Origin: Escherichia coli | GTDB taxonomy: Bacteria; Pseudomonadota; Gammaproteobacteria; Enterobacterales; Enterobacteriaceae | NCBI RefSeq assembly: GCF_003334385.1 | Contig: NZ_QOWN01000034.1 | Length of the DNA: 47,554 bases | Strand: one strand, 5' to 3' | In this document: positions 1-23,978 of the stretch, piece by piece | Layout of the letters: each line of letters begins with the position of its first letter | Numbering within the stretch: position 1 is the first letter of the stretch | Notes under the pieces: generated by a model | Told to the model about the DNA's origin: nothing | The model's database searches: none | What the model saw: only the letters and a program-made list of their open reading frames with translations | Program-made: the position numbers and the translations under genes

Positions 1-77
1 AACGCGAGGCATCGTCTTAACGAGGCACCGAGGCGTCGCATTCTTCAGATGGTTCAACCCTTAAGTTAGCGCTTATG
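1..77. mobile_element. IS186 terminus (partial, cut by window edge)
   Basis: Positions ~45-77 read CAGATGGTTCAACCCTTAAGTTAGCGCTTATG, the reverse complement of the IS186 terminal inverted repeat as I recall it (CATAAGCGCTAACTTAAGGGTTG...). An IS186 copy sits just downstream of dnaJ in K-12. Confidence 0.5.
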
Positions 78-168
78 GGAGTGATCCCCGCCACTTTTCA
101 GGTGCTCGCATATCTTCAACGCACCCTAATTTTACCCAAGCCTGCCCACGGGCAGGCTTTTGGGGAGG

Positions 169-1299
169 TTAGCGGGTCAGGTCGTCAAAAAACTTCTTCA
201 CACCATCAAAGAAGCTCTTTGAGCGCGGGCTGTTGTGCTCACCGGTTGGGCCACCGAAGCTTTCTTGCAGCTCTTGCAGCAGCTGTTTCTGCTTCTCGTT
301 CAGGCCTACCGGTGTTTCGACGACAACGCGGCACAGTAAATCACCCTGTGCGCCACCGCGGACAGACTTGACGCCTTTACCGCGCATACGGAACAGCTTA
401 CCAGTCTGGGTTTCGCCAGGCACTTTCAGTTTGACGCGACCATCAAGGGTCGGTACTTCGATTTCGCCACCCAGCGCCGCCATAGCGAAGTTGATCGGGA
501 CTTCGCAATACAGGTTGTTGCCTTCACGCTCGAAAATCGGGTGCTGTTTAACCTGAACCTGAACGTACAGATCGCCTGCCGGTGCGCCATGCTCGCCCGC
601 TTCACCTTCGCCCGCAAGACGGATGCGGTCTCCAGTGTCCACCCCTGCCGGGATTTTAACGGACAGCGTTTTGCTGCGCTCAACACGACCATGACCATGA
701 CATTTGTTGCACGGATCTTTGATCAGCGTACCGCGGCCCTGACAGTGTGGACAGGTCTGCTGCACGGCAAAGAAACCCTGACGCATCTGCACCTGACCAG
801 AACCATGACAGGTCGGACAGGTCTGCGGCTGTGTACCTGGTTTTGCACCGCTACCGTGGCAAACGTCACACTCTTCCAGAGTCGGAATGCGGATCTCTTT
901 GGTCACGCCACGTACAGCTTCTTCGAGGGTGAGCTCCATGTTATAGCGTAAATCAGCACCGCGCGCCGCACGTTGACGACCACGTCCGCCGCCAAAAATA
1001 TCGCCGAAAACGTCACCAAAAATATCGCTGAAGTCTGCGCCGCCGCCAAAACCGCCGCCGCCCATACCGCCTTGCTCAAACGCAGCATGACCATACTGAT
1101 CATATGCCGCACGTTTTTGCGAGTCGGTCAGAACTTCATAAGCTTCCTTGATCTCTTTAAATTTCGCCTCGGCCTCTTTGTCACCCTGGTTACGGTCCGG
1201 GTGGTATTTCATGGCCAGGCGTTTGTAGGCCTTTTTGATTTCACGCTCTTCCGCTGTTTTGGAAACGCCTAAAATCTCGTAATAATCTTGCTTAGCCAT
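169..1299 (-). CDS. dnaJ: Chaperone DnaJ (Hsp40), 376 aa
   Basis: ORF translation [12 protein letters not shown]..., J-domain HPD motif, Gly/Phe-rich linker, four CxxCxGxG zinc-finger repeats. Start set at the internal ATG giving MAKQDYY rather than the longest ORF. Confidence 0.97.
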
Positions 1300-12667: not shown

Positions 12668-15130
12668 TTAGACTCCTAACTTCCATGAGAGGGTGCGTAG
12701 CAGATCGGCAAAGACACCGGCAGCTGTAACGTCATTACCCGCACCGTATCCGCGCAGGACCAGCGGCAGTGGCTGATAATAGTGGCTATAGAAGGCCAAT
12801 GCGTTTTCGCCGTTTTTCACTTTGAACAGCGGATCGTTGCCATCCACTTCAGCAATCTTCACGCGGCAGACGCCATCTTCATCAATATTGCCAACATAGC
12901 GCAAAACTTTTCCTTCATCACGGGCCTTCGCCACGCGCGCGGCAAAGAGATCGTCGAGCTGTGACAGATTCGCCATAAAAGTCGCAACATCGCCTTCCGC
13001 GTTAAACTCTGCGGGCAGCACAGATTCGATTTCGATATCCGCCAGTTCCAGTGATCGTCCTGTTTCACGGGCGAGAATCAACAGCTTGCGCGCCACATCC
13101 ATACCAGAAAGATCATCTCGCGGGTCCGGTTCGGTATAGCCCATTTCTCTTGCCAGCGTGGTGGCCTCGGAGAAGCTCATCCCTTCGTCTAACTTACCGA
13201 AGATGAAAGAAAGCGAACCAGAAAGAATGCCAGAGAATTTCATCAATTCATCACCCGCGTTGAGCAGGTTTTGCAAGTTCTCAATGACCGGCAACCCCGC
13301 ACCGACGTTGGTGTCATAAAGGAATTTACGCCGTGATTTTTCCGCCGCGTAACGCAGCTGATGGTAGTAATCCATCGACGAGGTGTTGGCCTTTTTGTTC
13401 GGGGTCACCACATGGAAACCTTCGCGCAGGAAGTCGGCATATTGATCCGCCACTGCCTGGCTGGAGGTGCAGTCAACAATGACCGGGTTTAGCAGATGAT
13501 ATTCTTTCACGAGGCGAATTAAGCGCCCGAGATTAAACGGCTCTTTGGCTTGCGCCAGTTCTTCCTGCCAGTTTTCCAGGTTTAGGCCATGCACATTGGT
13601 AAGCAGAGCCTTCGAGTTGGCAACGCCGCAGACACGTAAGTCGATATGTTTATTCTTCAGCCAGCTTTGTTGACGCTTCAGTTGCTCCAGCAGCGCACCG
13701 CCAACGCCACCGACGCCAATCACAAATACTTCGATAACCTGATCGGTATTGAACAGCATCTGATGAGTAACGCGCACGCCAGTGGTCGCATCATCGTTAT
13801 TTACCACGACAGAGATTGAGCGTTCAGAAGATCCCTGAGCAATGGCGACAATGTTGATATTGGCGCGGGCCAGCGCGGCAAAGAATTTCGCCGAGATCCC
13901 ACGCAAGGTGCGCATACCATCACCTACCACCGAGATAATGGCCAGCCGTTCCGTCACCGCCAGCGGCTCCAGTAAGCCTTCTTTCAGTTCCAGGTAGAAC
14001 TCTTCCTGCATTGCCCGTTCAGCTCGCACACAGTCGCTTTGCGGAACGCAGAAACTGATACTGTATTCGGAAGATGATTGCGTAATCAGCACCACGGAAA
14101 TACGGGCGCGTGACATCGCTGCAAACACGCGCGCCGCCATGCCGACCATTCCTTTCATCCCCGGGCCGGAAACGCTGAACATTGCCATGTTATTCAGATT
14201 GGAAATGCCCTTGACCGGTAATTCGTCTTCATCACGGCTGGCACCAATGAGCGTACCTGGTGCTTGAGGATTTCCGGTATTTTTAATCAGGCAAGGGATC
14301 TGGAACTGGGCGATGGGGGTAATGGTGCGGGGGTGAAGAACTTTAGCGCCGAAGTAGGAAAGCTCCATCGCTTCCTGGTAGGACATCGACTTCAACAACC
14401 TCGCATCGGGCACCTGACGCGGGTCGCAGGTATAGACCCCGTCAACGTCCGTCCAAATCTCGCAACAATCGGCGCGTAAACAGGCAGCCAGCACCGCCGC
14501 GGAGTAGTCGGAACCGTTGCGTCCAAGCACCACCAGTTCGCCTTTTTCATTACCGGCGGTGAAACCTGCCATCAGCACCATGTGATCAGCCGGAATACGA
14601 CTTGCCGCAATACGGCGGGTGGACTCAGCAATATCGACGGTAGATTCGAGGTAATGCCCCACTGCCAGCAGTTTTTCGACCGGATCGATAACGGTAACGT
14701 TGTGACCACGCGCTTCTAACACGCCGGCCATAATGGCGATCGACATTTTCTCGCCACGGCAAATCAGCGCAGCGTTGATGCTATCCGGGCACTGCCCCAA
14801 CAAACTAATGCCATGCAGGACATGTTTTATTTGGGCAAATTCCTGGTCGACGAAAGTTTTCAGTTGCGCCAGCGGGAATCCCGGCTGGGCGGCGGTGAGT
14901 CCTGTCAGAAGTTCGGCAAAAATACGTTCGGCATCGCTGATATTGGGTAAAGCATCCTGGCCGCTAATGGTTTTTTCAATCATCGCCACCAGGTGGTTGG
15001 TGATTTTGGCGGGGGCAGAGAGGACGGTGGCCACCTGCCCCTGCCTGGCATTGCTTTCCAGAATATCGGCAACCCGCAGAAAACGTTCTGCATTTGCCAC
15101 TGATGTACCGCCGAACTTCAACACTCGCAT
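12668..15130 (-). CDS. thrA: Bifunctional aspartokinase I / homoserine dehydrogenase I, 820 aa
   Basis: [50 protein letters not shown]... Confidence 0.98.
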
Positions 15131-15154
15131 GGTTGTTACCTCGTTACCTTTGGT

Positions 15155-15192
15155 CGAAAAAAAAAGCCCGCACTGTCAGGTGCGGGCTTTTT
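15155..15192 (-). terminator. thr leader attenuator terminator
   Basis: AAAGCCCGCACCTGACAGTGCGGGCTTTTTTTTT on the minus strand, directly after the thrL stop and before thrA. Confidence 0.85.
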
Positions 15193-15211
15193 TCTGTGTT
15201 TCCTGTACGCG

Positions 15212-15280
<69 letters not shown>

Positions 15281-15490
15281 TGTTGTGTACTCTGTAATTT
15301 TTATCTGTCTGTGCGCTATGCCTATATTGGTTAAAGTATTTAGTGACCTAAGTCAATAAAATTTTAATTTACTCACGGCAGGTAACCAGTTCAGAAGCTG
15401 CTGTCAGAGACTCTTTTTTTAATCCACACAGAGACATATTGCCCATTGCAGTCAGAATGAAAAGCTGAAAAATACTTACTAAGGCGTTTT

Positions 15491-16576: not shown

Positions 16577-16717
16577 TTATGTTGCTGTTAAAATGGTTAG
16601 GATGACAGCCGTTTTTGACACTGTCGGGTCCTGAGGGAAAGTACCCACGACCAAGCTAATGATGTTGTTGACGTTGATGGAAAGTGCATCAAGAACGCAA
16701 TTACGTACTTTAGTCAT
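16577..16717 (-). CDS. yjjY: Small uncharacterised ORF YjjY, 46 aa
   Basis: ATG and TAA found on the minus strand at exactly the positions predicted by co-linear mapping onto K-12 yjjY; no functional evidence from sequence. Confidence 0.4.
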   Translation of the reverse strand: MTKVRNCVLDALSINVNNIISLVVGTFPQDPTVSKTAVILTILTAT

Positions 16718-16812
16718 GTTACGCCGATCATGTTAATTTGCAGCATGCATCAGGCAGGTCAGGGACTTTTGTACTTCCTGTTTCGATTTAGTTGGCAATT
16801 TAGGTAGCAAAC

Positions 16813-23360: not shown

Positions 23361-23894
<534 letters not shown>

Positions 23895-23975
23895 GACGGA
23901 TAAGGCGTTCACGCCGCATCCGGCATTCGGTGCACGATGCCTGATGCGACGCTGCCGCGTCTTATCAGGCCTACA
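23895..23975. repeat. REP pair between yjjX and trpR
   Basis: GGATAAGGCGTTCACGCCGCATCCGGCA and GCCTGATGCGACGCTGCCGCGTCTTATCAGGCCTAC. Confidence 0.85.
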
Positions 23976-23978
23976 AAA

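Follow-up and report, generated by a model that had tools for sequence, protein, structure and literature searches.

The window analyzed here is a stretch of 47,554 nt of Escherichia coli DNA (assembly GCF_003334385.1, contig NZ_QOWN01000034.1), and it begins with a 77-nt end of the insertion sequence IS186, followed by a 91-nt spacer and by dnaJ. The coordinates of the features at this edge are collected in Table 1. IS186 is an element of the IS4 family with a length of 1339 bp, of which the window shows 77 nt, the rest lying to the left of position 1. A search with window 1-77 against 5426 complete E. coli genomes gave an IS186 match of 77/77 nt (E = 1e-31) in 2142 of them, with a median of three IS186 copies per genome, and in the K-12 records the sequence matches once per IS186 copy. 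In the IS186A copy of K-12 the matching segment is the right end of the element, far from dnaJ. The perfect 23-bp repeat, formed by CATAAGCGCTAACTTAAGGGTTG and its complement, is exact at window 55-77, and the 23-mer is inverted at both ends of the IS186 copies of K-12, HS, DETEC-C31, WP4-S18 and 2022CK-00450. The preliminary description of this DNA, made from its letters, had proposed that the window opens in an IS186 terminus, and the identity over all 77 nt together with the terminal inverted repeat bears this out; the match to the inverted repeat, on which that proposal hung, is an exact 23-mer. In E. coli HS the transposase stop lies 94 nt ahead of the base equivalent to window position 1, and no transposase coding sequence is found within the window, of which positions 1-77 are the tail of a 171-nt non-coding right end. 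A promoter scan of window 1-168 revealed no outward-facing sigma-70-like site.

Table 1 Features at the left edge of the window, with window positions, strand and the evidence for each.
Feature	Position	Strand	Evidence
IS186, last 77 nt, right transposase-distal non-coding end	1..77	+	77/77 against IS186A of K-12, 16652-16728 (+), and the HS copy
IS186 23-bp terminal inverted repeat CAACCCTTAAGTTAGCGCTTATG	55..77	.	Inverted 23-mer at both ends of every 1339-bp copy examined
Target-site duplication, dnaJ-side copy, GGAGTGATCC	78..87	.	Flanks GGCGGGGAGTGATCC / IS / GGAGTGATCCCCGCC against the empty site GGCGGGGAGTGATCCCCGCC in E2865
hokC 3' UTR stem-loop GGCGGGG-AGTGAT-CCCCGCC (GC-rich, split), distal part; G4-N6-C4 target of IS186	78..92	+	Intact 5 nt past the hokC stop in empty-site genomes; conserved in a plasmid hok locus
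Box CTTCAACGCACCC, similar to a fold-back-inhibition (fbi) element, in the orphaned hokC mRNA tail	114..126	+	Aligns with CCTCAATGCACCC of the IncY plasmid hok locus
Hairpin, stem 138-146 / 151-159, loop 147-150, TTTT at 158-161	138..161	+	Folds; T-run on the + strand only; equivalent in plasmid hok
dnaJ	169..1299	-	ORF and translation; equals K-12 14168-15298

The five compared IS186 copies are identical over 1339 bp, and the gene for the InsL transposase (DDE, IS4-like) is intact both in HS and in 2022CK-00450, a near-identical genome. The latter is ~100% identical to the window over positions 1-24000 and continues beyond the terminus with an intact 370-codon transposase and then mokC/hokC. 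As the window gives no sequence left of position 1, the 77 nt might instead be a solo remnant, left by a truncated or rearranged IS186 or by a repeat-collapsed contig edge, and not the terminus of an intact IS186 lying between hokC and dnaJ. Among the 924 complete genomes with the same junction as the window, 11 indeed lack a match of at least 80% to the full HS arrangement, but the other 913 hold the complete 1339-bp element with both flanks, and together with the intact transposase of the ~100%-identical genome and the identity of all five compared copies this makes a solo remnant barely credible. The IS186 end probably explains the sequence break at the window start, because IS186 is a multi-copy repeat. 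The thought that the length of 77 nt reflects a k-mer overlap at the contig end, an assembler artefact, is speculation, because unique, prophage-like sequence makes up the right end of the window.

The IS186 of the window abuts the same base downstream of dnaJ as K-12 IS186A, with the junction CTTATG/GGAGTGATCCCCGCC (the slash marks the end of the element), so that the claim of an insertion at exactly the K-12 place is correct to the base. Read from the element toward dnaJ, K-12 also has CTTATG/GGAGTGATCCCCGCC, but the interior there belongs to the left end of IS186, and the insL1 start codon lies 55 nt in. In MG1655 and REL606 the transposase start adjoins dnaJ, whereas in the window the transposase-distal right end does, as it does in E. 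coli HS, C, DETEC-C31 and 2022CK-00450. The IS186 of the window is thus inverted relative to K-12 MG1655 and B REL606. IS186A of MG1655 (insL1, b0016), situated between dnaJ and hokC/mokC, agrees with the window copy in the identical 1339-bp element, the insertion base and the 10-bp duplication; it differs, like the REL606 copy, in that its transposase is co-directional with dnaJ instead of convergent, and the K-12 region carries three SNPs in the 91-nt spacer (positions 98, 129 and 139). The IS186/IS421 copy of E. coli HS (ECHS_RS00080) and that of E. coli C have the orientation and junction of the window, with 168/168 identity to window 1-168. Farther along, HS differs from the window at 9/1380 positions, and natural isolates such as 2022CK-00450 match the whole region better.

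The surrounding backbone follows K-12 in layout. Window 55-23882 matches K-12 as one continuous alignment in which a single gap opens over 23.8 kb, so that the K-12-identical spacing from dnaJ through arcA, as described earlier, was confirmed for gene order and distances alike. Over the same 23.8 kb the identity is 98.4% with 381 mismatches, and several natural isolates are ~100% identical to window 1-24000. The further suggestion that an IS186 at this place points to a K-12/B-like backbone goes too far, given the opposite orientation, the filling of the same site in many other genomes, the identity of 98.4% to K-12 and the ~100% matches among natural isolates. Direct comparison with K-12 and REL606 gave a divided answer: the spacing and insertion base are as in K-12, but the orientation is opposite in both. 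Phylogroup A is plausible, the window-type junction being present in HS, C and O6:H16 ETEC. The presence of IS186 here is a poor marker of K-12 ancestry, and it is the orientation that separates K-12/B from HS/C-like strains. For window 24001-47554 the best match among the 5426 complete genomes is at most 99.2%, and the contrast between the first and second halves of the window suggests a mosaic or recombinant region, as judged from the matches.

The nature of the spacer becomes clear from the site without the insertion. The empty site was reconstructed from both occupied flanks and has 100% matches in natural genomes; read directly in E2865, GGCGGGGAGTGATCCCCGCC is a perfect palindrome with 7-bp arms and a 6-nt spacer. 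The two occupied flanks overlap by GGAGTGATCC, and the target consists of a G-run, a short spacer and a C-run, as for IS186. The duplication is 10 bp long, with its second copy outside the window, and it could extend to as much as 12 bp, since the element ends in a C and a G that are identical to the neighboring target bases. SaiSree et al. in 2001 reportedly gave the IS186 target consensus as at least four G, three to six nucleotides and at least four C (G>=4 N3-6 C>=4). The target in the window fits this G-run/C-run preference. At the lon promoter hot spot, IS186 enters one position spontaneously and in both orientations (PMC3045373). That hot spot resembles the dnaJ-hokC site in its G-run/C-run palindromic target and in repeated independent hits at one position in both orientations; it differs in being a promoter spacer at another locus, whereas the dnaJ-hokC target is an RNA stem-loop of a toxin mRNA. 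Another K-12 copy, IS186B (CETR3G40 603424-604818), adjoins hokE, and its flanks match those of the hokC site over 39 and 15 nt. IS186 has therefore struck the corresponding stem-loop in a second hok paralogue, which makes the hok stem-loop a repeated IS186 target.

In the empty-site genome E2865, the palindrome lies 5 nt beyond the stop of hokC (gef) and runs straight on into the sequence of window 88-168; this uninterrupted arrangement of the hokC tail is present in 3815 genomes. Window 78-168 is the 3' tail of the mRNA for the type I toxin hokC (gef), cut off by the IS186 that sits in the G4-N6-C4 stem-loop of this mRNA. The hok locus of an IncY plasmid aligns along this tail, sharing the stem-loop GGCGGGGAG(A/T)GATCCCCGCC and then ACTYTTC. 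In the plasmid, the box CCTCAATGCACCC is complementary, with one bulge, to the 5' end of its own mRNA, GGGUGCUUGAGG. The hokC 5' end, GGGUACUUGAGG, was located via position 1 of the Rfam sok model, and its pairing with the box of the window, next to a nearly perfect duplex in the plasmid homologue, has a bulge, an A-C mismatch and a G-U pair. Duplex prediction for the box favored another partner, from window 89 onward, with a score that was modest against shuffles (17/1000); because this partner was ambiguous, the box is assigned as a putative fbi-like element by homology and not by energy. The full-length hokC RNA of the empty site has a predicted fold with z = -4.7 against shuffles, in which the 5' end pairs with the 3' region, namely with UACCC near the box instead of with the box itself. 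An Rfam scan of the empty-site locus found the sok/hok 5' model as the sole family and no 3'-tail family for the hokC tail; an rpsL_pseudo match (E = 0.82) was dismissed as chance.

Collectively, the hokC tail appears to have the fold-back-inhibition layout known for hok mRNAs, split by IS186 at the stem-loop. Like the 3' ends of hok/sok-type mRNAs (plasmid R1 hok, chromosomal hokC/gef), window 78-168 contains a stem-loop, followed by an fbi-like box and, at its end, by a hairpin plus T-run; it differs from them in being an orphan, with 1.34 kb of IS186 between tail and gene, and in having a terminal hairpin whose sequence is unrelated to that of the plasmid. In K-12, the IS186 downstream of gef/hokC is thought to disrupt the fbi element and normal mRNA processing (PMC3562002). 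The post-transcriptional control of hokC would presumably be lost in the window arrangement as well. In 2022CK-00450 an IS150 copy (95-1464 of the extracted segment) lies directly upstream of mokC/hokC, and the hokC locus there is flanked by IS elements on both sides.

The hairpin next to dnaJ was examined on both strands. Folding of window 125-172 gave z = -4.6 for the + strand and z = -3.1 for the minus strand (-21.9 kcal/mol). The TTTT after the stem is present on the + strand only, which is antisense to dnaJ and hokC-sense. On the dnaJ-sense strand, AAAA precedes the stem and UUGGGUAAAAUU (window) or CUGGGUAAAAAU (K-12) follows it, so that a U-tract is absent. In the IncY plasmid hok locus, which has no dnaJ nearby, a hairpin with a T-run of different sequence occupies the equivalent position. 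The best reading is that the hairpin closes the hokC transcript unit at its 3' end and is its intrinsic terminator, because the T-run is on the hokC-sense strand only and the plasmid hok locus has an equivalent. For dnaJ, it may serve at best as a terminator without a U-tract, acting bidirectionally, or as a stabilizing 3' hairpin. The preliminary description had called a hairpin with a T-run at 139-163 the probable dnaJ terminator; the hairpin is real, at 138-161, but its T-run is antisense to dnaJ.

A reading of the hairpin as no more than the dnaK-dnaJ operon's own intrinsic terminator is doubtful. In its favor, the dnaJ stop codon (TAA, at 171-169) is separated from the A-run by 7 nt and from the G-C core of the stem by 11 nt, the stem on the dnaJ-sense strand is stable and G+C-rich, and convergent genes often share terminators working both ways. 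Against it stand the missing U-tract after the stem in both the window and K-12, the T-run on the opposite strand, and the hairpin with T-run at the matching transcript position in a plasmid hok locus without dnaJ. A simple consensus terminator scan made no call on either strand at the hairpin, and neither the SMRT-Cappable-seq nor the Adams et al. 2021 Term-seq supplements list a dnaJ or hokC 3' end at it; for this region, the Term-seq data give only the 14145 end, upstream of dnaJ. We infer from the strand of the T-run that transcripts ending at the hairpin are those of hokC sense. The spacer beside dnaJ should accordingly be annotated as an orphaned hokC 3' UTR that includes the hokC terminator, and not as a terminator dedicated to dnaJ.

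To place the window among other E. coli, the site was typed in the complete genomes. The window-type junction is found in 924, the K-12-type junction in 686 and the empty site (coverage of at least 80%) in 3815, the three states together accounting for 5425 of the 5426 genomes, so that the site is occupied, in either orientation, in ~30% of them. Flanking haplotypes were compared over 400 nt next to dnaJ and 300 nt next to hokC. REL606 and WP4-S18-ESBL-08 (both K-12-type), HS (window-type) and E2865 (empty) have one flanking haplotype in common, and the distinct K-12 haplotype also occurs with the window-type orientation, in DETEC-C31. The orientation of IS186 is uncoupled from the local haplotype, which points either to repeated insertion at a hot spot or to in-place inversion across the perfect terminal repeats. 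Because their products are identical, sequence alone is unable to separate the two models; SNPs internal to the element were considered as a test of inversion versus independent insertion and were uninformative, as all five copies are identical.

It is unlikely that the two orientations arose through in-place inversion of a single ancestral insertion, by recombination between the 23-bp perfect terminal repeats, rather than through independent insertions. The identical junctions and 10-bp duplication in both orientations, the identity of the IS copies, and the opposite orientations of REL606 and HS on one flanking haplotype are what an inversion would leave behind. Recombination across 23 bp is inefficient, however, and the haplotype of REL606 and HS is also found empty in E2865, while each of two haplotypes carries both orientations. 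Recurrent insertion accounts for the data equally well, and at the lon hot spot IS186 enters its position in either orientation (PMC3045373). Orientation polymorphism on common haplotypes is in any case a clean natural example of the hot-spot behavior of IS186.

For the explanation as a whole, namely the right end of IS186, in the HS/C orientation, inserted in the hokC stem-loop and leaving the hokC tail with its terminator beside dnaJ, we estimate a probability of about 0.88, on the observed sequence identities, junctions, orientation, population counts, continuity with hokC and conserved architecture. In this explanation, the window starts 77 nt within the right, transposase-distal end of an IS186 copy, the remainder of which would lie to the left with its transposase reading toward dnaJ. 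The element has entered a target of its preferred type, the palindrome GGCGGGGAGTGATCCCCGCC with a G-run, a 6-nt spacer and a C-run, and has duplicated 10-12 bp. The palindrome is no feature of dnaJ; it is the conserved stem-loop just past the stop of the convergent hokC (gef). The insertion cuts the hokC mRNA off from its own 3' tail, and the tail, remaining beside dnaJ at 78-168, keeps one half of the stem-loop together with the fbi-like box and, at its end, the hairpin and U-run. This hairpin appears built to end or stabilize transcripts of the + direction, originally those of hokC and now possibly anything leaving the right end of IS186. An IS186 at a polymorphic hot spot on the dnaJ side is ordinary, already known biology, and the value of the finding is little beyond correct annotation.

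A more far-reaching idea, which we regard as distinctly improbable, is that the dnaJ-hokC stem-loop acts as a natural switch site, where IS186 repeatedly hits or flips and where the direction of the element has consequences. In the K-12/B orientation, read-through of the heat-shock operon dnaKJ, meeting no U-tract terminator, would then reach the transposase gene on its sense strand; in the window/HS orientation, transcripts from the hokC promoter would run in sense into the transposase gene, and dnaJ read-through would be antisense to it. The two orientations would thereby couple IS186 transposition to different signals. What the sequences show is the polymorphism itself and its independence from the local haplotype.

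Several other segments of the window depart from K-12. Between lplA and deoD, hipH (yjjJ, 1.3 kb in K-12) is missing, and ~290 nt at 33964-34249 are unaligned to K-12. An ORF at 33995-34258 (+) encodes 87 aa with weak helix-turn-helix-type matches (NadS/XRE-like, E ~0.004), and window 34250-35150, next to the hipH replacement, has just 95% identity to K-12. At the far end, window 47011-47554 departs from K-12 past the start of prfC and looks like the edge of a prophage or island beside prfC. It contains a LexA-box-like palindrome, CTGTTTATTTATACAG, at ~47191-47206, followed by a DinI-like ORF at 47250-47498 (82 aa; NCBIfam DinI, E = 2.5e-20, below the equivalog cut-off) and then by a hairpin with a T-run. 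Between yjjV and yjjW, tandem 101-bp REP-containing units are present at 41376-42166 in 7.8 copies with a 95% match, compared with ~4 copies of the 101-bp unit (414 bp) in the K-12 yjjV-yjjW array, and a single related REP unit is located at 23891-23976, near trpR/yjjX.
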